A stretch of 64,000 nt of DNA from Candidatus Moraniibacteriota bacterium (GCA_016699875.1 CP064989.1:10631-74630), one strand, 5' to 3'; counted from the first letter of the stretch, positions 3,301-42,943 are shown. Numbers and translations are program-made. Notes: generated from the sequence alone by a model not told the origin.

Positions 3301-5521
3301 CGCGAAAGGCGTCTTTTGTTTCTTGGAGAAGCGAGGCGTCCTCCGGCATCGTCTCGCTTGCGGCATCGGTGTAGTCGAGCAAAAGATAGTATGAAATCGC
3401 ACTGGTTGTATTGCTGAGATAGGCGGTTTCGAGTTTGCCAAGGAGTGCGGAAAGGGTGTGTCGGTCTTTGAGAAGTGCGGGGATAACGAAGACAGCCGAG
3501 GCGGATTCGGGAATTCGCCGCCGAAAATTGAGACGAGGGAGGAATGTCGGCGGGACAACTCCGACAAACAGGCTGTCTATGAGATGTTTCGACGCCTTGT
3601 AGAGAATGGGGAAGGCGATGATCATGAGAAATCGGTAGTGGAGATAAAACACGGCAAAGACGCTCGCCGTGAAAAGAGAGAGTGAGAATATGAATCCGAA
3701 ATAGGCAACACGTAGTGCGGGAAGTTTTCGACGATCGTGATACCAATGCCACCAGGACATGTGCGTGCTGCCGGTCAATCGCTTGAGGAGCGCTGGAAGT
3801 CCGTCATCGACAAGATAAAACCCGACATGGCGCTGCGGGTCGCTGCTGTCTTTGTGTTCCTCGGCGAGGGCGAGGGCGGCTCGCGTGAATGTTTCTTCGG
3901 AAAGTCGGAGCGTCTTTGCTATCGAAGCCGCTTTCTTTCGGTACATCTCTTGGGAAAGTGAGGTCATCTGTTCGTAGATATCGGCAGGGTCTCGAACAAG
4001 GAGTCGGTGAAGGGCATTGGTTTTCCGGAGGAGCGCATTCCACTCGAATTCTCCCAGGAGGGGGAGCGAACGAAGCAAAACGCGAACCCTAGTGGCAAGT
4101 TCGCGTAAACTTTTTGCTTCGGCAGTCCTTGAAAACGATTTTACCGGTCGCTCCTCGTTTTTCTTGGAAGATGTCTCGCGGAATCGAGAGAGGGGATACA
4201 CTTCCTTGGAACGGCATTCTTCAAACGCATCGGCGAAAGCGTCGGCACAGAGAGGCCCGCGCTTTCTCCGAAGCGTATCGAGTAGCGTGTGATAGCGGGA
4301 GGAATTTGGCCCGAATTTATTGAAGTGTTTTCGCGCCAGTGCGCGAGATTTTTCGACATCGGACAGTCGAATGGCGACGGTTGAAAGCTTATCAAGCGAA
4401 AGAAGTCGCAGGATCGGTGAGATCGCTTCTGTCTCGGCGAGTGAGAGTGAAAAAGCGGCGGACTCTTGCCAGTCATTGAGCGTGCTGGCCAGTGTCTCTT
4501 CCGAGAAGCGGAAGGCTGTTTTTTCAACATACCCATTGAGGAGATATGTTGCGGCTATAAGGTTGGCAGGTGCCGTTTCATCGAAAGATACTTTGGAAAG
4601 CGTTGCCTCGAGCGAGCGGAACTCCGCCGCGATAGCCGCATGCTTCTTGAGAAGCCACCGCGTTGCGAGCAGGAGAGTGTCGGGAGGAATTGAAAGCGAA
4701 GACGTACCGGTATCTTCTCGAGATCGATTAAGCCAGGAAGTGTGCTTTTGGTAGGGGGTGTAGAAAGAAGAGAAACGCCGGTGGATTTCCCGCACTTTCC
4801 GCGAGAGATGTCTCTCGATGACACGCTGCCCCCGTCGAAGCGAGAGACTGGAAATAGCGGTTTCCATGTGTTCTAACCACTTTTCAGTAGGGATTTCCGG
4901 ATGATAGTGTTGCCTAAAAAGGCGGGAAAGTAACATAGAGACGAAGAAATACCAGGGGAATACTAAGCAGAGTATAGCAGGAAAGAAGGAAAAATGGCTA
5001 TACTGCGGTCTCGGATGCGAGCCCCTTTCAAAAGCAGGGGATATGGTGTACAGTATGGAACGTTTGATGGGGTTCGGAGAGTTTAAAACGCGAGTTGAGA
5101 GGATATCCGTTTGCATTATCATATGGAGCTGTCGGCATCTCATAAAAAACCTTTTGTAAAGGTATGCGTGCATCGGGATTGTTGCGAGAAGGGATCGGAT
5201 CGTCTCTATGCGAAGCTCTCGCATGAAGTCTCGTCTGATGAGGCGGATATTCAGAAAACCGAGGACTGCTTTCGATTTTGCAAAAAAGGGCCGAATATCG
5301 CCGTTGATGGCAATGTCTTGCACCATATGAATGAGCGAAATGTGGTATCGCGCGTTCGATCTGAGATTCGGCGTCCTTCTTTCAAAAAGGACGGCATTGG
5401 CACGCGCCCCATAGATGAACTCGACGATGTGCTTGACAATATCGGTGTATAGTCTGTTGTTTGTTGTCCGGAGGATGTTCTTGGTATTGTTTTCCATTGA
5501 AACGTGATATACTAATCGCAA
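356..5521 (-). CDS. Cyclic beta-1,2-glucan synthase-like giant membrane protein (GT84-like glycosyltransferase + GH94-like domain)
   Basis: Single 1721-aa ORF. 'ITLDEDAF' (DXD-like) and 'NHRWTRGDWQ' (QxxRW-like) motifs sit between hydrophobic segments. Downstream are 'GHFYNWYHT', 'EYLMPALFLEE' and 'SESGY', which resemble the GH94 / cyclic glucan synthase (NdvB/Cgs) catalytic region. The start is uncertain; an alternative in-frame ATG lies 24 nt downstream. Confidence 0.6.
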   Translation of the reverse strand: MRLVYHVSMENNTKNILRTTNNRLYTDIVKHIVEFIYGARANAVLFERRTPNLRSNARYHISLIHMVQDIAINGDIRPFFAKSKAVLGFLNIRLIRRDFMRELRIETIRSLLATIPMHAYLYKRFFMRCRQLHMIMQTDILSTRVLNSPNPIKRSILYTISPAFERGSHPRPQYSHFSFFPAILCLVFPWYFFVSMLLSRLFRQHYHPEIPTEKWLEHMETAISSLSLRRGQRVIERHLSRKVREIHRRFSSFYTPYQKHTSWLNRSREDTGTSSLSIPPDTLLLATRWLLKKHAAIAAEFRSLEATLSKVSFDETAPANLIAATYLLNGYVEKTAFRFSEETLASTLNDWQESAAFSLSLAETEAISPILRLLSLDKLSTVAIRLSDVEKSRALARKHFNKFGPNSSRYHTLLDTLRRKRGPLCADAFADAFEECRSKEVYPLSRFRETSSKKNEERPVKSFSRTAEAKSLRELATRVRVLLRSLPLLGEFEWNALLRKTNALHRLLVRDPADIYEQMTSLSQEMYRKKAASIAKTLRLSEETFTRAALALAEEHKDSSDPQRHVGFYLVDDGLPALLKRLTGSTHMSWWHWYHDRRKLPALRVAYFGFIFSLSLFTASVFAVFYLHYRFLMIIAFPILYKASKHLIDSLFVGVVPPTFLPRLNFRRRIPESASAVFVIPALLKDRHTLSALLGKLETAYLSNTTSAISYYLLLDYTDAASETMPEDASLLQETKDAFRELNQRYGETDRFAFVIRSRAWSNRQGHWMGWERKRGKLLDFARALRGQATSSPFFISAKRLPHAEFIITLDEDAFITRDFIKDMLGIHSHPLQKPILNTNGELIRGYTFIQPHVKQWFKNRHRFRLPRIFFDEKRFSAYSTTFPEIYQDIFLEGSYAGKGSFHIDAFLSALDGALPTDQILSHDLLEGSLARTAYAADIDVFDEFPKSLRAMLARNHRWTRGDWQILDWLTPTVRDESGRVRKNTLAFVHRFKIADNLLQSLFRPAVFLITVLSWIVGNPHLLLFAWSIFLLDLFLLDMCIDWVRWSYQLLTGKWKHIGYRLKRTATRSFRLCRQAAFECITLPYAALDTTHAIITAISRRFISKKNMLEWVPSAHFENPAGRIPLLFPCITLLIVLLNFHTEGNIHPLFALLLVLWTGIPILVFLLNKPYKQAHDFSRQEEDGLRRDALETWSFFEQTVGPETHFLPPDYIRISPTPKTAEYTSITNIGFFLTSVLVAHRLGFISTKKAYASLERTCTSLERMERYQGHFYNWYHTKTALPAPPLFISSVDSGNLCAALIVTRQWLAHETTTLSVHRTEKGLHSMAQLIRDRIPKTLDMQSFSDIWETVISRIDTLPLNHEESSLFEQLRIIETSLIDIAIPKSLPEEVRDTLALLREQLRDTISEYQYHLSNKQTNVSSNTAGHTDNSHSDLIRKLDSIISEMRFDFLRSNKRSLISIGFHVPTKRLENRFYQTLASEARIANLLALAEGTLSFRGWNKLNRTVLPLRTGPALISWTGTLFEYLMPALFLEEHKDSLVGRSIQTAILMNRYSAKKKNIPAWGLSESGYAELDRGGNFRYKPFGLPALSLSPSADDRSVVSAYGIAMSISSFPRATLKNLAAYATYGGRGVYGYIEAIDFHRSRHGSPVNMFMSHHQGMILAAIGNCLSNRLLSRLFESHPLVQNSLFVLDEGIPPIDKEPFPRPAAPYLHTALSHPRTP

Positions 5522-5551
5522 TCGTTTGTTTTAATGATGGGTAACCGTACA

Positions 5552-5558
5552 AGGAGGG
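5552..5558 (+). promoter_or_regulatory. Shine-Dalgarno-like site (AAGGAGG) for the 5574 CDS. Lies in the 52-bp divergent gap between the giant gene and the small gene.
   Basis: 'caaggagggg' about 15 nt upstream of the ATG at 5574. Confidence 0.4.
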
Positions 5559-5573
5559 GTACACATCGCATGT

Positions 5574-6032
5574 ATGGCGGAAGAACCGGTGACGAATGAC
5601 GAATTGTCCGAAGAGGAGGATGTGCCTATGAAGAGTCTTGGGGATCGTGCGCGAGAGTTTCGAAACAGTCTTCAGAAAAGGTTTGCTGAGGGGAGCGCGT
5701 TGACGCTTGTTTTGTTGTTTGTGCTCGGATTGCTGTTTGGTGCGGCTGCGAAGGCCGTTGCATCGAGAAGTATTTTAATCGGATATTGGGACTATACTAT
5801 TACCCCCAAAGAACGGGCCGCTGTGAATTTGAATGCTCTCCAAGAAGAGCTGGCCGCTCGTCAGAAGGAGGCGGCGAAGCCGCAAAATGCGGAAGATGCG
5901 ACCGCATCGCAGCCGGAGGATTCCGGAGGCGAATCAGTCTCAGGCCAAAGCTCATCGGAAGAAGAGTTGCCGCCATTGCCACCAACGCCAGAACCGCCAG
6001 CTTCTCCATCTCCGGAGGCGGAAAAAGAATAA
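5574..6032 (+). CDS. Hypothetical single-pass membrane protein with an acidic N-terminus and a Pro/Ser/Glu-rich C-terminus
   Basis: 152-aa ORF with RBS. Contains one hydrophobic helix (LTLVLLFVLGLLFGAAA). The C-terminus is low complexity (PPLPPTPEPPASPSPEAEKE). Confidence 0.5.
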   Translation: MAEEPVTNDELSEEEDVPMKSLGDRAREFRNSLQKRFAEGSALTLVLLFVLGLLFGAAAKAVASRSILIGYWDYTITPKERAAVNLNALQEELAARQKEAAKPQNAEDATASQPEDSGGESVSGQSSSEEELPPLPPTPEPPASPSPEAEKE

Positions 6033-6073
6033 GATACGCCTCTTTTTTCAGTTTTCATTAATATCGGATACTA

Positions 6074-7218
6074 TGGATTTTCTGAATAAAAAAGAATCGA
6101 ATGAGAAGGATGATGATCTCGAGTTGTCGTTTCTTGGTGATACCTCAGAGGATGCCGGCGATATGCCGGAGGAAACAGATAAAAATCGCGAACTTACCAA
6201 GAAGGTAAAGAATCTTACGGCGCTTTTGGTAATTGTCGGCGGGCTCTTTGTCGGGAGTCTCTATGTGGATTTCTCGCAATTGTTCACGAAATCCGGATTT
6301 TCTTCGCGGGCACTGAAAACAACCGATGTGGTCACGGCAGCGGGAAAAACCTGGGTTGCCTATGATCAGCCGATTGTGCATGTAACGGTGCTTTCGGAAG
6401 AATCGTGCAAAGAGTGCCAGACCGATGAGGCGGTTGTCTGGCTTCGCCGGATTTTGCCAACCGTATCGGTTGAAATACTCGATGTTTCAAAGGATTCGAA
6501 GGCGAAGGACATGGCAAAAGCCGCCAATGTGACGGCGATACCCGCTTTTATTTTCTCCAAAGAAGTGGCGGAAGTCCCGGTATACGAGCAGGCGCAACAG
6601 CTTTTCACGCCACTCAACGACAAGGACGGCCGATATATGCTCGATACGGCACAGGTTGGTATTCCGGTGGGGAAGTATCTCGAATTGCCTGAGGTGAACG
6701 ATGCGGACATTCAGTCGGGCTCGAAGGATGCGCCGGTTCGTGTGGTGGAGTTTACCGATTTCCAGTGCCCCTACTGCAAAGCGTTCCACGCAACACTCCA
6801 AGATACGCTCAAAGAGTATGGAGACAAAGTACTCTATGTCTACAAGAACTACCCGCTTCCGATTCACGCGCAAGCGGAGAATGCCGCGCTTGCTGGCGAG
6901 TGTGCCAATGAGCAGGGAAAGTTCGTGGAGTATGCGGACAATCTTTTTAACAAACAAGACGAGTGGGGCAAGACAACCGGCGTGCAAAAATTCAAAGACT
7001 ATGCGCGGACACTCAAACTTGATACGACTCAGTTCAACACTTGCTTGGATGACAAGAAGTATCAGGACCAAGTGACTGCCAGTCTTGATGAGGGGAAGAA
7101 ATTTGGCATCAGCGGCACGCCGGGAACCTTTGTGAATGGCACCTTCTTGAATGGCGCCGTTCCTCAAAGCGATCTCAAAGCCGCTATCGACGCGGAGATT
7201 GCCAGTGCTTCGAAGTAG
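6074..7218 (+). CDS. Membrane-anchored thiol:disulfide oxidoreductase with tandem thioredoxin-fold (DsbA-like) domains
   Basis: Start trimmed to 'MDFLNKK'. The upstream Arg-rich extension is an out-of-frame shadow of the 5574 gene. Has an N-terminal TM helix. The first domain carries a CKEC motif and the second a canonical DsbA 'FQCPYCKAF' motif. Confidence 0.7.
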
Positions 7219-7339: not shown

Positions 7340-7410
7340 GGGCCTGTAGTAAAGTGGTATTACGCAGCATTCGCATTGCTGAGTCGGGAGTTCGATTCTC
7401 CCCAGGTCCA
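7340..7410 (+). tRNA. tRNA-Ala (anticodon CGC)
   Basis: Cloverleaf: acceptor GGGCCTG/CAGGTCC with the G3:U70 Ala identity pair, D-stem GTAA/TTAC, anticodon stem CAGCA/TGCTG with loop TTCGCAT, and T-arm GGGAG-TTCGATT-CTCCC. CCA is not encoded. Confidence 0.85.
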
Positions 7411-7418
7411 CAGCAATT

Positions 7419-8135
7419 ATGAATAGACCATATACAACCCTTTTTTTACTTGTTTCCGTAGACGGTAAGATTTCCACAGGTGATGTGGATGCTATGGATG
7501 TTGATAAGGACTATCCAGAGATTGAAGGTCTCAAAGAAGGTCTGAAACAATACTATGACCTAGAAATGGAGACAGATCTTTTTTCTTTTAATACGGGTCG
7601 GGTATTTGCAAAAGTTGGAGTAAATGAAAAAACGGATGAACCTGAAAAGTTACCAGTCAGTTTTGTTGTTCTAGATAACGAACCACACCTGATCGATAAA
7701 GGAGTTGTCTATCTTGCAAAGAAGACAAAAAACCTTATCATTGCTACTACTAATGAGGACCATCCTGCTTTTGCATTGAAAGATAGTTTTGAAAATATCC
7801 ACGTTCTAAAATATGAGAACAAAATAGATTTTCGCGACTTATTTGAAAAAATCAGAGAACAATTTGGTGCTGAGAGAATGACAATTCAATCAGGCGGTAC
7901 GCTCAATGCTACCTTAGTAAGGGAGGGGCTTATTGACCGAGTGTTATTGGTGGTTGCACCTGCTTTGGTTGGCGGGAAAGACACGGCGACCTTGATGGAC
8001 GGAGAATCTCTTCATAACACAAGCGATCTCGGGAAGATTGTTACATTGGAGTTGGCACAAGCAAAACCATTACAAAACTCATACTTGCTTCTAGAATATA
8101 AGGTGAGACCTAGAGAGTCCGAGCCTGCTCAATAG
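7419..8135 (+). CDS. RibD C-terminal domain-like (dihydrofolate-reductase-like) reductase
   Basis: 'LFLLVSVDGKIS', 'TLMDGESL' and 'LLLEYKV' fit the RibD_C/DHFR-like fold. Starts 9 nt after the tRNA. Markedly AT-rich compared with its surroundings. Confidence 0.6.
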   Translation: MNRPYTTLFLLVSVDGKISTGDVDAMDVDKDYPEIEGLKEGLKQYYDLEMETDLFSFNTGRVFAKVGVNEKTDEPEKLPVSFVVLDNEPHLIDKGVVYLAKKTKNLIIATTNEDHPAFALKDSFENIHVLKYENKIDFRDLFEKIREQFGAERMTIQSGGTLNATLVREGLIDRVLLVVAPALVGGKDTATLMDGESLHNTSDLGKIVTLELAQAKPLQNSYLLLEYKVRPRESEPAQ

Positions 8136-8247
8136 CTATCCCGAGTTCCTGCCAAGCCCGGAGTTCTGCTGTGATAGAGTTCCAACTGTGTAGGAGGTAG
8201 TCCCAAAGATATAAAAAAGATGCCCATACAAGCATCTTTTTTATATC

Positions 8248-8404
8248 TTTGTGGGATATTCTGAATGTAGCGCGGACCCATTTTGAGAAAAATTGCTGAC
8301 GCAATTTTGCCAAATCTCTGAAATCCGCTCGGGCGCGGCGGAAGGAGGGGGTTGGGGGGAGGAATTCCGCCGCGCCCTCGCTCCGAAAAAGTTTGCGCCG
8401 ACAA
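8248..8404. repeat. Left copy of a 157-bp near-perfect inverted repeat pair (partner at 10358-10514). Carries an internal 13-bp-stem hairpin.
   Basis: ORFs 8129-8416(-) and 10358-10597(+) translate to the same 53 residues with one A/V difference, so the DNA copies are reverse complements with one mismatch. Inside is the palindrome gggcgcggcggaa...ttccgccgcgccc with a G-rich loop on this strand (ggagggggttggggggagg). Confidence 0.85.
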
Positions 8405-8449
8405 TTGCAAAAACAAATTCGATTAAATCTTAGCTGAAATAATTTACTT

Positions 8450-9187
8450 GGCTCTAGACTATCAGATTCACTCTGTATAGTCTGGAATTATGTATAACTA
8501 CGCCAAAATATCAACATACAAAATCGGAAAAATAATTTCACACTTTTGCGTTGATGTTACTGCTTCCAAAACCGCTGTCCTGTTGGACATGAATCGCAAT
8601 GCGATCAACCATTGGTATGGTATCTTTCGCAGAGCGATCTATGTTCATCAGACGAAAGAATGCAAGAAAATATTCGGTGAAGCAGAGCTAGATGAGAGTT
8701 ACTTTGGAGCTCGAAGAAAGCGCGGATACCATGGAAAACTCAAGCGAGGACGAGGAACATTCAAGCAACCGGTGTTTGGTATTCTGAAACGTAACGGACG
8801 GGTATACACTGAGATCATACCAAACTGTAAGAAAGCAACACTTTTGCCCATCATCAGGGGAAAAGTCGATCCATCGACGGTTATCTATTCCGATGGTTGG
8901 AGAGGATATGACGGACTGGTTGATGTAGGGTATGACAAACACTTCAGAATGAATCACGGTGAGAATGAGTTTGCCAAGAGAGGCACTGGAATTCACATCA
9001 ACGGGATTGAAAACTTCTGGAGCTTTACCAAACGAAGACTCTCAAAGTTCAATGGGGTCAAAACTCATTTTGAACTCCATCTCAAGGACTGCGAATGGCG
9101 GTATGGGAAGGAAGTCGCGGTACTTGAGACAGAGTTGAAAAGAATAGTTCGACGGTATTTGAATTGTTAAAGTGATAGTCTAGAGCC
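8450..9187 (+). mobile_element. IS1595-family insertion sequence (about 738 bp) with 15-bp perfect terminal inverted repeats GGCTCTAGACTATCA
   Basis: IRL at 8450-8464 and IRR at 9173-9187 (reverse complement). They bracket a single ISXO2-like DDE transposase ORF. No convincing target-site duplication was seen. Confidence 0.75.
8490..9170 (+). CDS. IS1595-family (ISXO2-like) DDE transposase
   Basis: 'DESYFGARRKRGYHGKLKRGRGTFKQPVFGILKRNGRVYTEIIPN', 'IYSDGWRGYDGL', 'HFRMNHGENEFAKRGTGIHINGIENFWSFTKRRL' and 'ELHLKDCEWRY' match the DDE_Tnp_IS1595 domain. No N-terminal zinc ribbon is present. Confidence 0.85.
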   Translation: MYNYAKISTYKIGKIISHFCVDVTASKTAVLLDMNRNAINHWYGIFRRAIYVHQTKECKKIFGEAELDESYFGARRKRGYHGKLKRGRGTFKQPVFGILKRNGRVYTEIIPNCKKATLLPIIRGKVDPSTVIYSDGWRGYDGLVDVGYDKHFRMNHGENEFAKRGTGIHINGIENFWSFTKRRLSKFNGVKTHFELHLKDCEWRYGKEVAVLETELKRIVRRYLNC

Positions 9188-9290
9188 TTTGTTTTTACAA
9201 TCAATCGTTCTTTGAATTTATGAAAAAGAAAAACGCACCAGAGGTCCGAAGACATGGCGCGTTGGTTGGGAAACGAGAGAAGTTGGCGGG

Positions 9291-10049
9291 TTAGGCAGTG
9301 AGGTCGGTGAGGACCTTGCCCCAGTCCTTCCGCTCGTGCACCGTAGTGTCGTGCGTCCCTTTGCCATTGCAGACGTGGCACGGTTTCGAATGCTCGGCGT
9401 CCTCTTTGGCATGGGGGCACTTCCCCTTGGCGTCCAACGGGGTTCGGCAGTAGCCGCAAGCGGTTCCACCGACGCAGTTGTAACACTCGACGCCGAGCGC
9501 CGGATCCTCCACAAACGGCGTGTGCACGAACATGACACGAGCGCCGTTGACCACGAAGTTGGGCTTGAAGCCGTGGTAGTACGCATCGCCGATATGGTCG
9601 ATGGCCGCGCTCATGGCACCCTGATGGTGATTGGTTTCCGTGACCATAGCCACGAACTTGGCGCCACACAGAGTCGCCTTGAGTGCGATGATGAAGCCGT
9701 AGGGCACCTGCTCGCCAGAGTTGAAAACTCCGGGGGCGAGTGTTTTCCTGCTCATCGGCATCATCATGTCCGTCAACACCACCTCGAACGGAAAGGGAAT
9801 TACCGACATGGCTCCCGCCTCGTCGTGAGCCTTCCAGTAAGCGCTCCACCGCTCCTTGTCCTTGGAGTCCGGCATCGTCGGGAAACCTGCCTCGACGAGA
9901 AGACGCTGAACGTTGTCCTTGTCGATCTTCTGCGACATGAGTTCCATCGCCTCGTCGAACGACTTGACGATGGTGAGCTCGTGCGCAGAAAGGGTTTCCT
10001 TGGCCGACTCGCGGTGAGACTGCTTGTCCTCGATAACCAGAATACGCAT
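9291..10049 (-). CDS. GC-rich passenger gene: atypical CheY-like receiver-fold protein with a C-terminal Cys-rich (4x CxxC-like) zinc-ribbon-like region
   Basis: 'MRILVIEDKQ' start is preceded by AAAGGAG 7 nt upstream. Contains 'VVLTDMMMP' (Asp-x-x-M-P phospho-acceptor-like) and 'CYNCVGGTACGYCRTPLDAKGKCPHAKEDAEHSKPCHVCNGKG'. GC is about 58%, against an AT-rich IS next door. Confidence 0.5.
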   Translation of the reverse strand: MRILVIEDKQSHRESAKETLSAHELTIVKSFDEAMELMSQKIDKDNVQRLLVEAGFPTMPDSKDKERWSAYWKAHDEAGAMSVIPFPFEVVLTDMMMPMSRKTLAPGVFNSGEQVPYGFIIALKATLCGAKFVAMVTETNHHQGAMSAAIDHIGDAYYHGFKPNFVVNGARVMFVHTPFVEDPALGVECYNCVGGTACGYCRTPLDAKGKCPHAKEDAEHSKPCHVCNGKGTHDTTVHERKDWGKVLTDLTA

Positions 10050-10095
10050 GGTAATTCTCCTTTCAGTTTGGTTCGTTTGATTTCGCCTACCCACA

Positions 10096-10140
10096 ATGAG
10101 TAGCGCACTAAATACCCAATTTAGACGTCCAATGCGCTAC
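10096..10140. promoter_or_regulatory. Palindromic candidate operator upstream of the GC-rich passenger gene
   Basis: 'gagtagcgcac' ... 'gtgcgctactc'-type inverted repeat (tgagtagcgcact / caatgcgctactcac) in the 5' region of the minus-strand gene. Confidence 0.3.
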
Positions 10141-10357
10141 TCACAGAGTAAGTAAGGAGAATTAACCGCTTCTTTTCTCTCGCTTATCAAAGAGCTATTT
10201 TCGCTAATTTTGGAGGAAGTATACCACCTCAAATTTCGCGTTAAGTGTAGCGTATTGTGTCTATTCTGTCAAGCCCAAACGCTATAATCAAAACTATGCC
10301 CAAAAACCAACAAAAAAAGCCCTTATTTCAAGGACAATTTCATATCTTCTTATTTGG

Positions 10358-10514
10358 TTGTCGGCGCAAACTTTTTCGGAGCGAGGGCGCGGCGGAATTC
10401 CTCCCCCCAACCCCCTCCTTCCGCCGCGCCCGAGCGGATTTCAGAGATTTGGCAAAATTGCGTCAGTAATTTTTCTCAAAATGGGTCCGCGCTACATTCA
10501 GAATATCCCACAAA
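10358..10514. repeat. Right copy of the 157-bp inverted repeat pair. Internal hairpin at about 10385-10431 with a C-rich loop on this strand.
   Basis: Reverse complement of 8248-8404 with one mismatch (gcaatt vs gtaatt). Both ends diverge sharply from the left copy outside the repeat. Confidence 0.85.
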
Positions 10515-10655
10515 ACACAAATTTTGAGGCTTTTCATAGCCTCTTTTTTGTATTGACACCGAGTCTAAAAAGGTGTACAATAATATGTTGTAAGTAAGAG
10601 CTTGCGACTGCCTCGATTCCCGGCATCCAGGGGATTTTCTTTGAAAAAGGAGATG

Positions 10656-11213
10656 GCGATGACGATTCAGTCGATCACGCAAGGCCAAGCAAATCAGAAG
10701 AAGCCCAGATCGCATTACCCGGTGCTTGCTGAAACCAGGCTCCTCAAACCTGTCGGCAAGTCAACTGTTCCAGTCAGGACGAATCCCTTCAATGCAGAAA
10801 AGTTCTACCAGACCGGCACCGGCCTTTACGTCTACGGCATGTTCCCAGGTCGCCTCAACTTGAGTTTTAGGCAGACAGTGGATTCGGCTCCCGAACGTCC
10901 CTACGTGGCTTTGCTCCTCAAGGAAAACGCCTACGACAGGAACATCCGCAAGAAACTGCCGGACATGCACCTGTCCACACTGGAAGACATCGCAGGCCTC
11001 ATTGAAGCACAGCCGGGCGGCAAGCCGGGCTTCCTGCTAAACAACGGCTACGCGAACATCTTCTACGTCGAGGAAAACAGTGAAGTCTTCGTCGTGGATG
11101 TCGGCTGGAAATTCGACCGCTGCGAGTGGGGCGTCGACGGCTGGAAGCTCGGCGAGGCTGGCCGCTGGCGCGTTGACACGCAGGTTCTCTGCCCAAGCAA
11201 CGCGGCGCTCTGA
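10656..11213 (+). CDS. Hypothetical protein (GC-rich, no recognisable domain)
   Basis: Start at 'MAMTIQS' with GGAG 8 nt upstream. About 55% GC. Followed by a hairpin plus T-run. Confidence 0.5.
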   Translation, partial: AMTIQSITQGQANQKKPRSHYPVLAETRLLKPVGKSTVPVRTNPFNAEKFYQTGTGLYVYGMFPGRLNLSFRQTVDSAPERPYVALLLKENAYDRNIRKKLPDMHLSTLEDIAGLIEAQPGGKPGFLLNNGYANIFYVEENSEVFVVDVGWKFDRCEWGVDGWKLGEAGRWRVDTQVLCPSNAAL

Positions 11214-11253
11214 CACCTTTTTAGTTCATTTGAACAAAAGACTTTTGTCTATT

Positions 11254-11300
11254 AAACCCTTGGAAGCTACAGTGTAACAACCAAGGGTTTTTTGTCTTTT
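11254..11300 (+). terminator. Rho-independent terminator candidate
   Basis: aaacccttgg-(17 nt loop)-ccaagggttt followed by ttttgtcttttttt. Confidence 0.5.
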
Positions 11301-11331
11301 TTTGTCTTGCCGAAAATAGGTACCAGAGAAG

Positions 11332-11544
11332 TCAGAACAAAATCTTTCCAATTGCGAAAAAAGCGATAATGGCCCAGAGAACATTCAGCACGCCTGGCTG
11401 ATATGTCTTCTTATGGAAGGAGATGGCGACGATACCGAGTGCGCCTGTTCCATTGAGAAGCTGGTACACAATACTCGTTGGTGTCAGGAATGAGAAACTT
11501 ATCAGGGCATAGGCGAGAGAATGATGGAGACTGTTCCGTACCAA
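11332..11544 (-). CDS. Small hydrophobic membrane protein, possibly one gene interrupted by a frameshift with an upstream 24-codon ORF
   Basis: The 70-aa ORF (TTG start) is almost entirely hydrophobic. An ATG ORF 'MNKDRLIALFGWYGTVSIILSPMP*' begins at 11579 in another frame and overlaps it. Confidence 0.3.
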   Translation of the reverse strand: MVRNSLHHSLAYALISFSFLTPTSIVYQLLNGTGALGIVAISFHKKTYQPGVLNVLWAIIAFFAIGKILF

Positions 11545-11579
11545 CCGAAAAGCGCAATGAGTCTATCTTTATTCATAGA

Positions 11580-11984
11580 TCAATCAATGAGATCTTTTGA
11601 TTTCAGATCATCGAAGATGAGTTGATCCACGGGCGATATCTCATTTCGTCTCGAGGAGTCAAACCAATCCATTTGTTCCACTTCAGCACTGGGCGCAAGC
11701 TTCCCTGAGTATTTTCCTTGGTAGCAAGTCATTCTTACGAGAGTTCCTTCCGGTTTTCCGTGAGCTTGTGCCTCAAAGGTTCCGTAGTGCTTGAGAGTTT
11801 CGGGAATGATGTCGATCTGCAGCTCCTCTTTCATTTCTCGCATCAGAGCTTCTTGATCGCTTTCATTATTCTCGCGTTTTCCTCCCGGAATGTACCAAGC
11901 GTCTTTTCCATAACTACGCGTCTCCAAGACTCTCCGGTTAAGAATTTCAATAAAGGCCAGTTTGTCGATGTATGTTGTTTCCAT
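11580..11984 (-). CDS. NUDIX hydrolase
   Basis: Nudix box 'GGKRENNESDQEALMREMKEELQI' (GX5EX7REUXEEXGU). Confidence 0.85.
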   Translation of the reverse strand: METTYIDKLAFIEILNRRVLETRSYGKDAWYIPGGKRENNESDQEALMREMKEELQIDIIPETLKHYGTFEAQAHGKPEGTLVRMTCYQGKYSGKLAPSAEVEQMDWFDSSRRNEISPVDQLIFDDLKSKDLID

Positions 11985-12017
11985 ATATATTGCATCTAAT
12001 GAGGAATGAGGGATGCT

Positions 12018-13721
12018 TTAAGAATCACTCCTCTCAGTTTCCGAGAGGAGAGCGTCTTTGTTTGCATCTTCAGAGAAAGTGACGGAATCTTTGGCGAAGC
12101 CGCTTGCTTGCATGTCTATGTTGTGTGAATCGGCTCCGGAGATCGTGAGACAGTCTTTGCGGACGAGAGGGCACTTGGTGTTTATGAACGAGAGATTGGC
12201 GCCATCCTTGATATCGAAGACCGTGCCCTTGGTGGGGACGGCAGTAACTCTGTCAAAAGTGATATATTCCGCCTTTTCTATTTGAGCGCCCCATTTCGAG
12301 GAAATTTTGACGTTCTTGAAAACAACGTCAATAATCGGCTGTTCCACGAGCCCGTTGATTTCTATTGAGCGATCGGTTTTCCCGACAGACATATCTTCGA
12401 TGGCGATGTTGCGAAAGAGGGGGATAGCGCCGCGGCCTTTGATAAAGGAGTTTTCATAGGCGGTTGTGAGTTGTACCGCAGCTATGGAGGCGTAGTCGAT
12501 ATTCACTATATTGGCGTGGATATTTTCTACGATTCCGCCGCGGCCCTTTGAGGACTTGATGCGGAACCCATACTGAACCATATTTGCGGAAAGGTTTTCA
12601 ATGAAAATATTGCGCACATCGCCGGACATCTCGCTCCCGATGGCGACAGCGGCATGCGCTTCGAGTATGGAATTATTTCTGATTAAGACATTTTCCGTTG
12701 GTTCTCGAACACGGAGACCGTCACTATTTCTTCCTGACTTGAGGACAATGGCATCATCGCCGGTACTGAAAACGTTATCCTCAATAAGGACATTTATTGA
12801 AGAGTCGAGTGCTACGCCATCGGTGCTTGGTCCGGCACTGGTCTCAATATGAACACCGCGAACAATGATATGTGTACTGTAGAGCGGATGAATCGTCCAC
12901 ATGGGACCGTTTTGTATGGTGACGCCCTCGACGAGTACGCGGTGGCAATTCATAAATTCGATGAATGCCGGGCGAAGAGCGTCTGCGACGGTTCCGAAAA
13001 CGCGCTCGGACACGGGTACATCGTCGTCGCCCATTCGGTAGAGATTTTTGATAGACTTGTTCCAGTCACGCATCGCTTCCCACCAAACGGCGCCTTGTCC
13101 ATCGAGCGTGCCTTCACCCGTAATGGCAACATTGAAAGCATTGGCAGTATAGATAGGAGCGGAATAGTTGTAATATTCAATGCCCTCGAAGCGAGAGAAA
13201 ACGACCGGCAGATACTCTTCAAAGTTCGTGCTGAAAAGAATGGTCGATCCCTTTTCGAGGTGAAGATTGATATTGCTTTTGAGATGTATCGCTCCGGTGA
13301 ACCAGGTGCCTTTGGGAACTTGGACGGTCCCGCCTCCGGTACTGGCGCAGTCCTCTATCGCTTTCCGAAACGCTTCAGTATCGGAGGTGATGCCATCACC
13401 CTTCGCACCGTAGTCGGCGATGGAACAAACTCTGTCCGGAAAACCCGTTTCCTCAATACTGAGCGAGCCACCGGAAAGTGTCTGAAGTGTGGCAATCGAT
13501 GTTGCCAGCGGAATGGATTGCGATATATCCGGGAATTCCCGAGGGATTTCCGGTTCGGTCGGCAGTGTTTCTTCGGGAGAAGCTTCTCTCGTAAAATCCT
13601 GTGATGATGAGAATATTGTTCGTATCCGGTCTCCGAACAGTTTCCAACCTCCAAGGATAACTCCGACAATGCAGAGAGCAAAAAGGAGGAGAAGAATGGC
13701 TGTTCGACGCTGCTGAATCAT
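12018..13721 (-). CDS. Membrane-anchored right-handed beta-helix glycoside hydrolase (GH28 / pectate-lyase-3 family)
   Basis: N-terminal TM helix. 'DYGAKGDGITSDTEAFRKAIEDCASTGGGTVQVPKGTWFTGAIHLKSNINLHL' is the hallmark of the Pectate_lyase_3/GH28 beta-helix. Paralogous to 23682-25217. Confidence 0.75.
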   Translation of the reverse strand: MIQQRRTAILLLLFALCIVGVILGGWKLFGDRIRTIFSSSQDFTREASPEETLPTEPEIPREFPDISQSIPLATSIATLQTLSGGSLSIEETGFPDRVCSIADYGAKGDGITSDTEAFRKAIEDCASTGGGTVQVPKGTWFTGAIHLKSNINLHLEKGSTILFSTNFEEYLPVVFSRFEGIEYYNYSAPIYTANAFNVAITGEGTLDGQGAVWWEAMRDWNKSIKNLYRMGDDDVPVSERVFGTVADALRPAFIEFMNCHRVLVEGVTIQNGPMWTIHPLYSTHIIVRGVHIETSAGPSTDGVALDSSINVLIEDNVFSTGDDAIVLKSGRNSDGLRVREPTENVLIRNNSILEAHAAVAIGSEMSGDVRNIFIENLSANMVQYGFRIKSSKGRGGIVENIHANIVNIDYASIAAVQLTTAYENSFIKGRGAIPLFRNIAIEDMSVGKTDRSIEINGLVEQPIIDVVFKNVKISSKWGAQIEKAEYITFDRVTAVPTKGTVFDIKDGANLSFINTKCPLVRKDCLTISGADSHNIDMQASGFAKDSVTFSEDANKDALLSETERSDS

Positions 13722-28833: not shown

Positions 28834-29280
28834 ATGCGTATGGAACTCTCCGAAAACATACCTCGCCAGGAAAGGAATCTGGCTATAGAAGAGAGAAAAC
28901 ATGAGGAGACTCTGAGCTGGTTCGATATGAATCTGCAAGTGTGCGCTATCGAAGAAATAGTCAGAAGAACAACGCCTGACAGTGAAAGTTTGGACCATCT
29001 CGACAGACAACAAAGAGGACAGTTGCGACTAGGGATTATTACAAGTGGATTCTCCACGTGGTATAGAGAAGAAAAAATTTCGCAGCGATTCACGGAAAAT
29101 TCAGAGACATTCTCAAAGATAGCGGCTCTGCATGAAAAACATCTCCAAACAAGCAAATCAAAAGGAGAGGGGAGTGATAACGCCCGGCTGATATTGGAAC
29201 AAGATTTCCTGGAATTCTCTAAAGAAGTAGCAGATTCCTGGCAATTGTTTCATCAATCGGAGAGCAGTATGCGACATTAG
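28834..29280 (+). CDS. Hypothetical charged/coiled-coil protein
   Basis: ORF trimmed to 'MRMELSENIP' to avoid overlapping pyrG. No recognisable motif. Confidence 0.4.
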   Translation: MRMELSENIPRQERNLAIEERKHEETLSWFDMNLQVCAIEEIVRRTTPDSESLDHLDRQQRGQLRLGIITSGFSTWYREEKISQRFTENSETFSKIAALHEKHLQTSKSKGEGSDNARLILEQDFLEFSKEVADSWQLFHQSESSMRH

Positions 29281-29373
29281 AATACTCACTGAAAAATTAT
29301 CAAAATACTATATGGAGGAGAAAGAGGGAAAAAGCGAGCAGATAGTGTCACGTTCTATTCTTTCCCAAGCCAG

Positions 29374-29410
29374 AAAACCCACCAATATTTGGTGGGTTTT
29401 CTCTTTTCTC
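29374..29410. terminator. Bidirectional rho-independent terminator between the convergent genes 28834-29280(+) and rpmA(-)
   Basis: cccaccaa-tat-ttggtggg hairpin flanked by an A-run (5') and a T-run (3'). Confidence 0.55.
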
Positions 29411-29451
29411 TTCGGAATTCCGGAGTAGTGTACAATGCCAGCTCTCTTTTG

Positions 29452-29733
29452 TTATGCTGACAGCTTCACGTGAACAAAAATTCGTTTCGCAAGTTTGCCT
29501 GTAAAAGCAAGCATTTTCTTGTGTTGAAAAGACACCTTCCCATCCGCAAGAGCAAAAAGAGTGTCATCCGCTCCTTTTTTTACATTCTGACCAGGGTGAA
29601 ATTTGGTACCCCGCTGACGGACAATAACTTCACCCGGGTGTACTGATTGACCGCCAAACCGCTTTACGCCGAGGCGTTTTGCGATGGAATCGCGGCCAAG
29701 ATCGGTAGATCCGCCTGCTTTACGATGCGCCAT
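29452..29733 (-). CDS. rpmA: 50S ribosomal protein L27 (with C-terminal extension)
   Basis: '[51 protein letters not shown]'. Confidence 0.85.
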
Positions 29734-29928
29734 AAACCTGAAATATAGGGATAGACAGATACGATAACAGGGAAATGGTATCGCTTTTTCATGATACTGT
29801 CAATATCCGATGGAAGACACTGGAAGAACATGATTTCTGCATATAAAACAAAAGAAATTGACCAAAAAAGAGATACAGCTTGCCTTTTTTGCCTCTAGAA
29901 GATACGATAGCGCCATTATACATACGGC

Positions 29929-30390
29929 ATGGGACCCTTTCTGAAAAAACCTTTTCGACATGCGAAAGAAACCGGAGCACAATGGTTTCAGGGGCACGGA
30001 CAAAGCCTGATACTCTTCGTCGGAGTCGCCGCTTCGCTAATGCTGGCTTTTGAGGGAGGTTTTCTCATTGGAAAAGATCGGCAATCCGCACCCATCTACG
30101 TAGAGAAACCAGCCGATCCATGCGTATGCACAACAGTACCCTCTGATCAGAGAGGGGAAGATACCCTCGTGCAAAACTCCCAGAACTCTGTGGGAACAGC
30201 AGCTGGAGATTCCGATAATTTAAAAGATATGGGTGATCAGGTCTGCGTATTTGTCGGGAGTCGGAATTCGGATAAGTATCATCTGCCCAAGTGCAGCTGG
30301 GCAAAACGGATCAAACCGGAAAACCGAATATGCTTCACGTCCGCTGCTGATGCCGAATCAAAAGGATATAAACCGGGGTGCATAGAATGA
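29929..30390 (+). CDS. Membrane-anchored protein with an Ada-type zinc-binding domain
   Basis: One TM helix (LILFVGVAASLMLAF), then 'CVFVGSRNSDKYHLPKCSWAKRIKPENRICFTSAADAESKGYKPGC'. This resembles the Ada_Zn_binding pattern (YH-P-C ... pen-rv-F-s-eeAe-aGyrPC). Confidence 0.5.
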   Translation: MGPFLKKPFRHAKETGAQWFQGHGQSLILFVGVAASLMLAFEGGFLIGKDRQSAPIYVEKPADPCVCTTVPSDQRGEDTLVQNSQNSVGTAAGDSDNLKDMGDQVCVFVGSRNSDKYHLPKCSWAKRIKPENRICFTSAADAESKGYKPGCIE

Positions 30391-30447
30391 TGCCAAAGCC
30401 ACAATAAACACTTCGACAGCTTCAGAGTTTTCTGTGATAATAAGAGC

Positions 30448-31719
30448 ATGTCAGAAGCTACGGAAAGTTCATTGCGGCATTCCGAACAATACGATTCTCT
30501 GCAAACGCGCCGACTCAGTGGCATAGCGTTTCTTTTTGGTTTTGCCGACTCATTTTTGGTCTACATCCTCTCAGCATACTTCTCGGAATCAATCGGGAGC
30601 GCCAATGTCAGCGCATTTTACTTCATCGCTTTTGGAATTATGCTTGCATTCCTCTTCTCTTTGCAAGCAGTTGTCCGATCAATTGGAGAAACATCGCTCT
30701 TTATGCTCTTCATCCTCGGTGTCATCGGGGTGCAGATACCACTTACTTTTCTGCCAACGTCAATTTCAGGGTCGATGCTTATCATGGGATACCTTGTTGC
30801 TACGGCGCTGGCTTGGGTCACATTGGATATGGTGCTTGAACGCTCTTCCGAAGACCGGCGATCAGGGAGGATACGCGGCATGAATCTTTCCGCAATGAAT
30901 CTCGGGATATTGTTCGCCCCATTTCTTTCCGCGACCATCCTCGGTCATTTCGGATTTTCCGGAGTATTTTTTGTCAGTCTTATTTTCTATTCGATCCTGT
31001 TTCTTCTTGCACTTCTTCTTTTGGCATCGTCAAAAAGACCGATTGAACGACAAGTTTCACCGGTCAATATTTTCAGAAAGGTGCGGCGCCGCACTGACAT
31101 CGCAAGAATCTATATTGTTTCATTCGCGCTCAATTTTTTCTACGCAACCATGATCGTCTACACATCGCTCCGCCTCCGAGAACTTGGTATGAGCTGGAAC
31201 CACATCGGAATTGTTTTCACAATTATGCTCATTCCCTTCGTCATCATTCAGTATCCGCTGGGCAATATTGCGGATCGACGGACTGGCGAAAAAGAGCTTC
31301 TTATTGGTTCATTGATTCTTTCAGCGCTCTCAACAGCTTCGCTTGTCTGGATAGAGAGTCCGAGCGTGGTGCTCTGGGCAACGCTGCTTTTTATAACTCG
31401 AGTTGGCATTGCCGGAGTCGAAGTTCTGAGTGATTCGTATTTCTACAAGCGTATTGACGGGAGCGATAATGATCTTATTGCCTTTTTTCGGACAGCTCGT
31501 CCGGTTGGTAATATTATCGCCGCACTCTTCCTTGGAACCTGGCTTATCTTCTTTCCGCTTTCAAGTATTTTCATTTTGCCCGCCATCATATTATTAGTCG
31601 CTCTCATCCCAGCTATCTCCCTCCAAGACAATCCGAGCGAACGCGAACAAGACTCAATCTTGCATGGAAATCAGCCGATCGAAGCACGTATTAATTCCTA
31701 TGGAACCGGAACTTTTTGA
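30448..31719 (+). CDS. MFS transporter
   Basis: About 12 hydrophobic helices arranged as two 6-helix halves. A 'GRIRGMNLSAMNLG' motif follows TM2. Confidence 0.75.
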   Translation: MSEATESSLRHSEQYDSLQTRRLSGIAFLFGFADSFLVYILSAYFSESIGSANVSAFYFIAFGIMLAFLFSLQAVVRSIGETSLFMLFILGVIGVQIPLTFLPTSISGSMLIMGYLVATALAWVTLDMVLERSSEDRRSGRIRGMNLSAMNLGILFAPFLSATILGHFGFSGVFFVSLIFYSILFLLALLLLASSKRPIERQVSPVNIFRKVRRRTDIARIYIVSFALNFFYATMIVYTSLRLRELGMSWNHIGIVFTIMLIPFVIIQYPLGNIADRRTGEKELLIGSLILSALSTASLVWIESPSVVLWATLLFITRVGIAGVEVLSDSYFYKRIDGSDNDLIAFFRTARPVGNIIAALFLGTWLIFFPLSSIFILPAIILLVALIPAISLQDNPSEREQDSILHGNQPIEARINSYGTGTF

Positions 31720-31900
31720 GAAAATACAGAACATCGAACAGAAAGTCGATCGGATGTTTGCAAGCGTCGAGAAGCTCCGGCGATATTTTCTTTGGACACT
31801 GATCATTACGCTGGTCACGGTGGTTCTCCCGATTATCGCCCTTATGTTCGCCATACCTTGGGCGTTTGGGATCCTTTCGAACGCCTACAATATTTCATAA
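31700..31900 (+). CDS. Small hypothetical membrane protein
   Basis: 'MEPELFEKIQNIEQKVDRMFASVEKLRRYFLWTLIITLVTVVLPIIALMF'. Overlaps the MFS stop by about 20 nt. Confidence 0.3.
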   Translation: MEPELFEKIQNIEQKVDRMFASVEKLRRYFLWTLIITLVTVVLPIIALMFAIPWAFGILSNAYNIS

Positions 31901-31908
31901 TCGTTTCT

Positions 31909-33024: not shown

Positions 33025-33132
33025 ATCACACATGCCACAGATATCTTGTCAACGTTGACACAAAAAAGCGTTTCTCTTTACAATGGCGAAGTATGATCGT
33101 TTTTTATCCGGATTCTCCCTTTTCCTTCCTCT

Positions 33133-34059: not shown

Positions 34060-34072
34060 ATTTCTACCACCT

Positions 34073-36385: not shown

Positions 36386-36406
36386 AACTGTGACTCGAGC
36401 ACCTCT

Positions 36407-37036: not shown

Positions 37037-37151
37037 TGTATACTCCTGAAAGATGAAAGATGTGAAAAAAGATGACAAAAAAATAGCGAGAAGAACAACT
37101 TCTTCTTTGGTAAATTAAATAAAGAAAAATTGATAAATAATAACTAACTAT

Positions 37152-37505
37152 ATGTCAGATATTCAAAGCATCTTTGATCATTTGAGTGAAATGAAGAAAG
37201 AGCAAAAAGAAATAAAAAAAGAGTACCGGGACATACTTGCGCAAAACCTCGATTACGAAAAAGCAATTGAAGAGCTCGAAAAAACTCGAGAAAAAAAGTC
37301 TACCCTCGAACAAAAAGCCAAAGATTCTCTCGGCAAGCGCTACGAACGATACGAGGAACTCGCAGATGAAATCAAAGCTAATCAAGAAATGTTGTCAGAT
37401 ATGGCTATGACAACGCTTATGGATGGAAAAACAGTTGAAGCTGTCGATGAGTACGGCAACAAATACGAACCAATTTTTGCAGTTCGCTTCAAGAAGCAGG
37501 GATAG
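37152..37505 (+). CDS. Hypothetical charged coiled-coil protein
   Basis: 117 aa, rich in K/E. Confidence 0.4.
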   Translation: MSDIQSIFDHLSEMKKEQKEIKKEYRDILAQNLDYEKAIEELEKTREKKSTLEQKAKDSLGKRYERYEELADEIKANQEMLSDMAMTTLMDGKTVEAVDEYGNKYEPIFAVRFKKQG

Positions 37506-37869: not shown

Positions 37870-37877
37870 TCGGGTAT

Positions 37878-42928: not shown

Positions 42929-42943
42929 AGAGGAGAGTCTTTA

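Follow-up and report, generated by a model that had tools for sequence, protein, structure and literature searches.

A tRNA-flanked gene-exchange hot spot in a Candidatus Moraniibacteriota genome holds a cassette framed by a structured repeat shared among Candidate Phyla Radiation bacteria

Bacteria of the Candidate Phyla Radiation (CPR, or Patescibacteria) get by with tiny genomes, and their means of gene exchange are poorly understood. The DNA analysed here (the window) is a 64-kb stretch of a Candidatus Moraniibacteriota metagenome-assembled genome (MAG) that consists of a single contig of 1,088,644 bp. Between a tRNA-Ala(CGC) gene and a GH28-family gene, this window carries a low-GC gene for a RibD_C-family reductase, an insertion sequence (IS) of the IS1595 family, two GC-rich genes (genes A and B), an open reading frame (ORF) of 70 amino acids and a NUDIX hydrolase gene. 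A prediction made earlier from the nucleotides of the window (the original prediction) had proposed a mosaic island that starts at the tRNA, and the locus is indeed a genuine multi-step mosaic hot spot flanked by a tRNA: a precise gene-swap slot on the side of the tRNA that works without the usual integrase signature. The earlier reader missed a 157-nt inverted repeat that frames the IS and gene A. Each arm of this repeat is a copy of a structured element (the unit) that is found nearly identical over many CPR phyla, where the framed genes are those for restriction-modification, SMODS and transporters as well as small GC-rich ones, and where it lies at a fixed distance from genes for large serine recombinases (LSRs).

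To define the slot, relatives were found via the DsbA-like protein encoded upstream of the tRNA, which yielded three lineages with 90%, 78% and 69% protein identity. All three retain the genes for glycoamylase, two small proteins, DsbA and tRNA-Ala(cgc), and the two closer lineages also retain GH28 followed by four PMT-family genes. In BLASTN comparisons with four sequences from these relatives (L047, L050, L051 and L052; loci other than the window carry such L numbers), similarity to the window stops within 1–2 bases of the end of the tRNA gene (7340–7411, plus strand; identified by ARAGORN and by Rfam with 65.8 bits), whose final base bounds the variable slot on the left. Nucleotide similarity restarts at 12044–12063, the 3' end of the GH28 gene (12018–13721, minus strand; assigned by Pfam), which is the first conserved gene of the right flank. 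The original prediction ended the island at a terminator at about 11254–11300. A hairpin with T-runs was located there by repeat search and in the sequence itself, at 11254–11290 between gene B and the 70-aa ORF, but the island extends about 740 bp further. The region 11332–11984, comprising the 70-aa ORF (11332–11544) and the NUDIX gene (11580–11984; Pfam NUDIX, 1.3e-10), both on the minus strand, has no BLASTN match to the syntenic relatives and is therefore part of the island, whose right edge lies near 12043.

The slot thus delimited by the BLASTN breakpoints and the relatives' gene tables (7412 to ~12043) is lineage-specific. It measures 4.6 kb in the window, where it holds the RibD_C gene, the cassette framed by the inverted repeat, gene B, the 70-aa ORF and the NUDIX gene. 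Its counterparts are a 1.44-kb segment with a UCP032817-like gene and a TehB-like methyltransferase gene (L047), a 1.15-kb segment with a DUF5655 gene (L050/L051) and a 3.3-kb segment with nucleotidyltransferase, ParA/CbiA-like and other genes (L052, with the right edge taken from the gene table and not from BLASTN). The GC content of the slot is below that of the flanks also in L047 and L050, and a profile search detected no repeat units in the relatives' slots. Gene order in the slot is not conserved, and the proposed variable island beginning at the tRNA 3' end accordingly stands: 7412 to ~12043 is a gene-exchange hot spot between a glycoamylase–DsbA–tRNA-Ala block on the left and a GH28–PMT block on the right.

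The original prediction appealed to tRNA 3' ends as classical integration sites. By this account, one or more tyrosine-integrase elements entered the 3' end of tRNA-Ala, and the integrase and the distal attachment (att) repeat have since been lost. The onset of variation at the tRNA gene end in four relatives, as well as a slot composition unlike that of the flanks in the window, L047 and L050, are what such elements would leave behind. However, the ORFs and Pfam domains of 7412–12043 include no integrase, as had been correctly noted, and no pseudogene-sized ORF with such a domain, nor is an integrase found in the three alternative slot fillings. A TBLASTN search of the 64 kb yielded no serine recombinase. 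A direct repeat of the tRNA 3' end, for which the original prediction had proposed a search near 11300, was sought both in the island and in the window and was not found: BLASTN-short detected nothing longer than 9 nt in 7427–13000, and the sole match to the terminal 21-mer of the tRNA in the 64 kb, allowing ≤3 mismatches, is the tRNA itself. Classical tRNA integration is therefore not borne out, and decayed integrase elements are an improbable source of the island.

The slot resembles tRNA-associated islands in being a variable, compositionally distinct segment that starts at the exact tRNA 3' end and holds different cargo in each genome. It differs from them in its small fillings (1–5 kb) and in having no integrase, duplicated tRNA end or att-like repeat. 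Exchange through the conserved flanks is more likely. The sharp edges at two conserved blocks likewise suggest replacement through flank recombination, by which the slot as a whole would probably be refilled, rather than by a tRNA-specific integrase.

The slot filling of the window is composed of modules, namely the RibD_C gene, a 2.27-kb cassette (8248–10514), gene B with its own promoter, and the 70-aa ORF with the NUDIX gene. The cassette is bounded by the 157-nt inverted repeat, whose arms are 99% identical, lie 1953 nt apart and enclose the IS and gene A. The left unit (8248–8404, minus strand; nhmmer E 8e-42) is 99% complementary to the right unit (10358–10514, plus strand; nhmmer E 1.3e-41), and repeat and nhmmer searches recovered only these two copies in the window. 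The units nearest in sequence to the right copy are those of L167 (94.9%) and L101 (92.4%). An assembly artefact was considered and rejected, given that the source is one 1.09-Mb contig and that the arms differ at one base. Adjoining the outer (3') end of the left unit is a perfect palindrome (8204–8251) with a 20-bp stem and an 8-nt loop, which was identified by repeat search, folding and a terminator scan and looks like a bidirectional terminator.

Inside the arms, the cassette is organized as a scaffold around its cargo. The segment next to the right unit (ext-2; 10050–10357, minus strand) was characterized by promoter and terminator scans and BLASTN, and contains a promoter (TTGACA-17-TACACT, 10272..10244), an inward-facing terminator (10335..10319) and a leader of ~195 nt with a hairpin GAGTAGCGC...GCGCTACTC (~10098–10144). 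Gene A (9291–10049, minus strand) is the GC-rich cargo. It is followed by a conserved cargo terminator (~9224–9265) and by a segment named ext-1, also read on the minus strand, whose distal half (9188–9230) and unit-proximal half (8405–8449) are severed by the IS. Nucleotides 9188–9290 have BLASTN matches in L029, L101, L122, L167, L044 and L020, and the cargo terminator plus ext-1 (8405–8449 plus 9188–9290) recur in ~20 loci. The terminator region is 89% identical over 38 nt to the region downstream of a Falkowbacteria gene A homologue, and its stem has a different sequence in L122 with complementarity kept. At the other end, 10096–10356 is 73–81% identical to segments of L148, L137, L029, L101 and L074, which there stand ahead of other GC-rich genes. 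The scaffold cargo of these five loci consists of unrelated genes with GC contents at third codon positions (GC3) of 0.76–0.91, in flanks of 0.32–0.47 GC. These comparisons establish the cassette as two inverted units, with their 3' ends (...CAGAATATCCCAC) outward, around a promoter and leader (ext-2), a GC-rich gene, a terminator and ext-1. In L029 and L101 an LSR gene lies past the ext-2-side unit, a position that is occupied by gene B in the window.

The same five loci (in L029 at 1938–2006) share a segment of ~35–70 nt ahead of each GC-rich cargo gene. Read as an ORF it gives ..THQFHAHGHRPRARKQEDDM, and it is repeated before the second gene of two-gene cassettes, which suggests a modular building block of leader plus ORF.

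The IS (8450–9187, plus strand; 738 bp) was delimited by its Pfam match, its inverted repeats and the interruption of ext-1. Its transposase gene (8490–9170) matches DDE_Tnp_IS1595 (PF12762; E 1.6e-26, 93.6 bits versus a cut-off of 27) and is named 'IS1595 family transposase' by NCBI. The terminal inverted repeats GGCTCTAGACTATCA (8450–8471 / 9166–9187) are 86% complementary over 22 nt, and their outer 15 nt are identical. The sequences that flank the IS are contiguous in eight other loci (L029, L020, L038, L042, L044, L167, L101 and L122). Compared with the intact ext-1 of L167, L101, L122 and L029, the junction in the window has 7–8 extra bases that form an imperfect duplicate, AAAACAAA^IS^AAGTAAA(T). 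Target-site duplications of IS1595-family elements are ~8 bp. In its length, its 226-aa DDE_Tnp_IS1595 transposase and its GG-tipped terminal inverted repeats the IS resembles the IS1016-size group of this family, and it differs in that its flanking 7–8-bp duplication is degenerate and in being a passenger in the cassette, not its mobility engine. Because it splits an ext-1 that is contiguous elsewhere, the IS represents a later, independent insertion into ext-1 and is not what brought in the GC-rich genes. The island was therefore assembled in more than one step. This upholds the multi-step part of the earlier proposal of at least two independent acquisitions, but not its derivation from base composition, since GC-richness proves to be a trait of gene families and of a gene pool (see below). 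As an observation apart, intact copies of ext-1 carry a promoter-like sequence (TTGCGA-17-TATTCT) directed into the unit, and the IS of the window separates the corresponding -35 and -10 hexamers (8405–8449 / 9188–9201). Judged by these hexamers, the IS may have silenced transcription of the left unit.

Outside the right unit, the plus-strand segment 10515–10655 was found by promoter and terminator scans to contain a terminator-like hairpin (10526–10543 plus a T-run), the gene B promoter (TTGACA-17-TACAAT, 10553–10581) and the gene B leader, whose stretch 10579–10634 shares 73% identity with the sequence ahead of the gene B homologue of L003. TBLASTN searches of all unit-bearing loci with gene A, gene B, RibD_C, the IS transposase and NUDIX gave no match, and thus none of the five is a recurrent cargo. 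Likewise, neither units nor the leader occur near the other gene A and gene B homologues (L001–L007, L174–L176).

The unit itself is widespread. An exact 35-nt core was found in 39 stretches of species-representative genomes, which by record title belong to more than 15 named CPR lineages, including Vogel-, Nealson-, Harrison-, Blackburn-, Moran-, Yonath-, Yanofsky-, Azam-, Falkow-, Lipton-, Roizman-, Sungii- and Gracilibacteria, Saccharibacteria and Microgenomates. Core matches frequently lie at contig ends and as inverted pairs 1.5–6 kb apart. An independent pattern for the 3'-end motif identified at least 120 metagenome contigs with the unit, and viral contigs contained no unit core, no 3' motif and no relatives of genes A or B. 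Beside CPR there are four core stretches, on two contigs of MAGs binned as Bdellovibrionales. These contigs ('uncultured Bdellovibrionales', 62–67 kb; L016/L017 and L032/L034) carry units together with a unit-adjacent LSR, and represent either mis-binned CPR DNA or spread of the element outside CPR.

Alignments give a unit length of ~150–330 nt and a common order: a 5' end GTCGGCGCAAA, hairpin 1, a variable middle that often contains a hairpin 2 with a GTCA loop, and a 3' end CAAAATGGGTTCG..TTCAGAATATCCCAC. Both ends are conserved. A GCGAAGC motif recurs in the variable middle of many units, for example in L008/L039 and in a subset of units termed class B; this heptamer forms an exceptionally stable DNA mini-hairpin. 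The arms of the window form a 13-bp GC stem (GGGCGCGGCGGAA / TTCCGCCGCGCCC) that closes a C-rich loop of 21 nt, as well as a second hairpin, and their folds are far more stable than those of shuffled sequences (z -3.8 and -5.4). Hairpin 1 is represented among the units by ~10 distinct stem sequences with full complementarity and by two others with one mismatch, and RNAalifold reports compensatory changes in 5 pairs. On inspection, the balance of G-U and A-C mismatches in this hairpin gave no pointer to the transcribed strand.

The hairpin-1 loop (within 8331–8377 and 10385–10431 in the window) is nearly all pyrimidine with a central purine, and the 3' half contains CCTCCTT, which resembles an anti-Shine-Dalgarno sequence. 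The loop is often mirror-symmetric, as in CCTTTCCCCC-TCA-CCCCCTTTCC (window, L054–L173). Mirror symmetry exceeds that of 95% of composition-preserving shuffles in 8 of 19 distinct loops, which is a lead and not a finding. Pyrimidine mirror-symmetric sequences can form triplexes, either as H-DNA or of the clamp type. Relative to the remainder of the unit, the ~21-nt loop is reversed, and hence G-rich, in L010, L036, L037, L077, L079, L142 and L169 and in all class B units (e.g. L028, L035, L045), as if the spacer between the stem arms inverts.

The unit family is apparently previously undescribed. No Rfam family matches the unit at the gathering threshold, the only passes in the window being tRNAs; at E≤10 the conserved core remains uncovered across 8100–10700, with weak, chance-level overlaps at its edges far below gathering. 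Literature searches on CPR, serine recombinases, invertons and repeats turned up nothing relevant. Among known repeats, the units are like repetitive extragenic palindromic and bacterial interspersed mosaic elements (REP/BIME) and miniature inverted-repeat transposable elements (such as Correia and RUP) in being short, hairpin-rich, non-coding, often near terminators and assembly-breaking. They differ in having neither terminal inverted repeats within the unit nor target duplications, and in being near-identical across CPR phyla, paired around cargo and linked to a recombinase.

Pairs of units follow a common geometry: nearly every pair examined has its 5' (GTCGGCGC) ends toward the cargo and its 3' (CCCAC) ends outward, with the exceptions of L077 (3' ends inward) and L123 (direct orientation). 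The inverted layout of the window is also present in L026, L029, L039, L063, L066, L069, L072, L087, L100 and L112. The enclosed cargo includes C5-methyltransferase/restriction systems, type III-like restriction-modification genes, a SMODS protein, XRE/LexA-type regulators, an ABC transporter, a symporter and an S41 peptidase. Partner units are 98.6–100% identical in seven inverted pairs and in the direct pair of L123, and units from different loci are 75–95% identical. A same-strand LSR gene starts within 450 nt of the unit 3' end, mostly at ~150–215 nt, for 21 of 124 units. The N-terminus of an LSR was found in 24 loci, and the Pfam domains of these proteins are Resolvase, Recombinase and Zn_ribbon_recom. 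In addition, L008 and L039 are 100% identical over 2.7 kb with the ABC-transporter cargo inverted relative to the shared right flank, and further isomers of opposite orientation are 99.6–100% identical (L008/L066, L008/L116, L067/L114, L113/L131). Such opposite orientations are the expected product of recombination between inverted units.

We hypothesize that the units serve as recombination sites for inversion or exchange, a reading to which we assign a probability of roughly 0.55. The units would act as substrates for an LSR, encoded in related loci 150–215 nt past the outer end of a unit, and the cassette would then most likely be an LSR-dependent invertible and exchangeable module, as suggested by the near-identical partner units and by identical DNA with the segment in both orientations. 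The cassette of the window would be an orphan that is served in trans, if at all. The mobilization mechanism, which the original prediction called unclear, is in this way narrowed, since the IS and gene A lie inside an inverted-repeat cassette whose relatives adjoin LSR genes. If the link between unit and recombinase is functional, it would constitute a new way of shuffling gene cassettes and spreading them horizontally, in a group that makes up a third of bacterial diversity, and would offer potential recombinase/site pairs for genome engineering.

Several points weigh against this hypothesis. The isomers come from different short-read assemblies, in which the assembler may orient a segment bounded by ~150-nt repeats arbitrarily, and inversion is thus unproven. 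Only 17% of units have an adjacent LSR, and the window contains no LSR, integrase or recombinase besides the IS transposase, in a view limited to 64 kb out of 1.09 Mb. Cargo that has its own promoter gains no obvious regulatory pay-off from inversion. A transcribed RNA would also fit several features of the unit, namely its covarying stems, a predicted helix that includes four G-U pairs, and the terminator-like hairpins downstream. Finally, the replacement of the slot through flank homology is only inferred.

The proposed recombination sites can be compared with two known systems. As in Din-type inversion systems (Gin/G of Mu, Cin/C of P1 and Pin of e14), the cassettes are bounded by inverted repeats, and related loci have a serine recombinase gene just outside one repeat and, as assembled, show both orientations in near-identical DNA. 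Din-type systems use an invertase of ~190 aa, sites of ~26–34 bp and alternative gene ends as cargo. The unit loci instead have a large serine recombinase of 470–560 aa, structured repeats of 150–330 nt and whole genes with their own promoter, and they are numerous across many lineages; the window copy has no recombinase. Integron gene cassettes are similar in being interchangeable single-gene modules with accessory or defence cargo, with hairpin-forming repeats that are conserved in structure over sequence and with a recombinase gene adjoining some arrays. They differ in that the unit loci have no IntI tyrosine recombinase, have inverted and not direct units, and supply the cargo with its own promoter, leader and terminator. 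An integron cassette was therefore rejected for the window, on the grounds of the missing tyrosine recombinase, the inverted units and the cargo promoter TTGACA-17-TACACT.

The inverted units could alternatively be the terminal repeats of a DDE-type transposon, non-autonomous or composite and perhaps moved by the IS1595 transposase. Long inverted termini of the form 5'-(T)GTGGGATATTC...GAATATCCCAC(A)-3' and a transposase gene inside the window copy fit this model, and the frequent location at contig ends suggests multiple copies. However, no target-site duplication exists at the outer flanks of the pairs in the window, L026, L029 and L039. The IS has inverted repeats of its own and demonstrably interrupts the scaffold, its transposase has no homologue among the other unit-bearing loci, and of the ORFs listed for pairs none was noted as transposase-like. 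A DDE transposon is accordingly very unlikely.

The main rival to recombination sites is an RNA role, with which such sites are nonetheless compatible. Here the units would primarily be structured-RNA genes, either for a terminator-ended small RNA or for the 5' leader of the recombinase mRNA, with the inverted pair a by-product of duplication and with a C-rich loop that would bind G-rich, Shine-Dalgarno-like sequences. Hairpins 1 and 2 covary, the folds score z -3.8 to -5.4, and an enclosing helix, predicted with four G-U pairs, would form on just one of the two strands. In 21 of 119 distinct contexts, both window copies included, a terminator-like hairpin begins within 30 nt downstream of the unit, compared with 1.2 expected at random, and these hairpins are unrelated in sequence. 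The unit also keeps a steady spacing from the LSR gene and shares its strand. An RNA would, however, have its C-rich loop swapped for a G-rich one in those units in which the loop is flipped. Also against it are the inverted pairs that always turn the same end toward the cargo and whose partners are homogenized. Terminator-like hairpins on the opposite strand are found in 14 of the 119 contexts, as against 21 on the strand of the unit, so that some may belong to a neighbouring gene. No Rfam family matches the unit. On balance we consider a primarily RNA function possible, though the less probable of the two.

A further possibility, which we put forward tentatively and consider unlikely, is that the unit represents a new class of structured nucleic-acid element that works with LSRs in CPR bacteria. 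It could do so as a structured recombination site of unusually large size, or through an RNA that is produced just upstream of the LSR gene and serves as cofactor or guide. This is suggested by the combination of a covarying GC-rich hairpin, a pyrimidine-only and often mirror-symmetric loop, and the flipping of this loop in some copies. One loop, TTCCTCCCCCC-AA-CCCCCTCCTT, is arranged in sequence like a triplex 'clamp' directed at a purine tract, for instance AAGGAGGGGG. Were this reading true, CPR bacteria would possess a system, common to the radiation, that shuffles and disseminates self-contained GC-rich expression cassettes and defence genes between phyla.

The alternating base composition that first drew attention to the locus was confirmed. 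Downstream of tRNA-Ala(CGC) at 7340–7411, sliding GC is 0.375–0.395 in the RibD_C gene (7401–8000) and 0.395–0.415 in the IS stretch (8201–8800). It reaches 0.58–0.595 at 9201–10000 and 0.54–0.588 at 10601–11200, in agreement with the two GC-rich genes proposed, and drops to 0.425–0.45 past 11200. The GC/GC3 comparison was made with the 48 other ORFs of the window as reference (GC 0.482 ± 0.041, GC3 0.503 ± 0.063). Gene A (GC 0.592, GC3 0.794, about +4.6 standard deviations (SD)) and gene B (GC 0.573, GC3 0.731, about +3.6 SD) have the top two GC3 values of the 64 kb, the RibD_C gene is low (GC 0.396, GC3 0.339, about -2.6 SD in GC3), and the IS transposase gene has a GC content of 0.427. Composition swings of this size are rare in the window yet not unique, as further outlier genes lie at 46893–47453 (GC 0.34) and 59180–59929 (GC 0.595).

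Such outliers, together with a GC content per kb that drifts from 0.42 to 0.56 across the window and a high GC3 that genes A and B share with their families, might be taken to mean that nothing here is mobile, the region being conserved and merely heterogeneous in composition or marked by the codon bias of highly expressed genes. This is the least credible of the explanations. The slot genes differ in every relative between conserved flanks, so that ordinary compositional noise is already refuted for the slot by synteny; the units and scaffold share 80–95% nucleotide identity with distant CPR lineages; and the remaining genes of high GC3 in the window are not of the kinds that are typically highly expressed.

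Gene A (IPK84_00120) was examined by homologue search, AlphaFold and Foldseek. Its predicted product combines a CheY-like receiver domain, which carries an insertion, with a C-terminal part that is rich in Cys and has a CXXCXGXG motif. The model has a predicted local distance difference test score (pLDDT) of 92.1, and its best Foldseek hits are receiver domains (E 2e-3 and weaker, template modelling score ~0.5–0.65 on the target). With 17 bits, the match to Pfam Response_reg stays under the cut-off of 30. Among homologues D94 never varies and E7 and D8 hardly do, consistent with an acidic pocket, and the protein is probably an atypical single-domain response regulator. There are 139 homologues, and the named hits are all CPR bacteria bar one named Diapherotrites archaeon. 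Gene B (IPK84_00125; 10656–11213, plus strand) is conserved in Moranbacteria and has 140 homologues with 53–75% identity. It has no Pfam match, and its model is too poor to be usable (pLDDT 45). Searches of PDB sequences returned nothing for either protein. In two other Moranbacteria (L001, L003) gene B adjoins an Rrf2-suf operon. In L001, a reverse transcriptase gene (RVT_1, 363 aa; 11498–12589) lies beside the gene B homologue and seems to split SufD.

High GC accompanies these genes wherever they are found. GC3 is 0.70, 0.80 and 0.70 in the gene A homologues of L005–7, L174 and L175, for host or locus GC contents of 0.44, 0.48 and 0.51, and it is 0.78, 0.72 and 0.78 in the gene B homologues of L001, L003 and L176, for 0.46, 0.50 and 0.55. 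In L174 (Komeilibacteria), the gene A homologue is one of five small genes in a 3-kb run (3855–6774) with GC3 0.75–0.87, in a genome of ~0.45–0.48 GC; no units or recombinase were found near this cluster. In L175, it belongs to a run of small unknown genes that ends at an LSR gene. High GC is thus a trait of the CPR-restricted gene A and gene B families and of the cassette gene pool in every host examined, and for this reason gives no pointer to a particular donor. It characterizes a GC-rich pool of accessory genes that CPR bacteria have in common, and may stem either from a mobile pool with its own mutational bias or from codon selection. As a caution, GC-rich genes in genomes richer in AT are not necessarily recent imports from a GC-rich donor.

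Pfam matches among the ORFs of 7412–12043 are RibD_C, the IS1595 transposase and NUDIX, and three genes fall below the cut-off. The RibD_C gene (7419–8135, plus strand; Pfam RibD_C, 1.8e-19) encodes QQS15760.1, named 'dihydrofolate reductase family protein' by NCBI. A look-up of the contigs that encode proteins identical to those of gene A and the RibD_C gene returned no record. The RibD_C start codon lies 8 nt past the tRNA-Ala 3' end (7412–7421), with no Shine-Dalgarno sequence and no promoter between them, and the gene may be co-transcribed with the tRNA and yield a near-leaderless mRNA after tRNA processing.

Elsewhere in the window there is a second compositional mosaic at 45900–48200. 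Its low-GC gene (46893–47453, minus strand; GC 0.34), which has no Pfam match, is flanked by an ABC-2 permease gene (GC3 0.67) on one side and an unknown gene at 47494–48192 (GC3 0.63) on the other. Cumulative GC skew reaches a maximum at ~29–33 kb and then declines, and gene orientation is mostly plus at 15.5–41.7 kb and mostly minus beyond 48 kb. The window may thus include a switch that resembles a replication terminus, at ~29000–48000.

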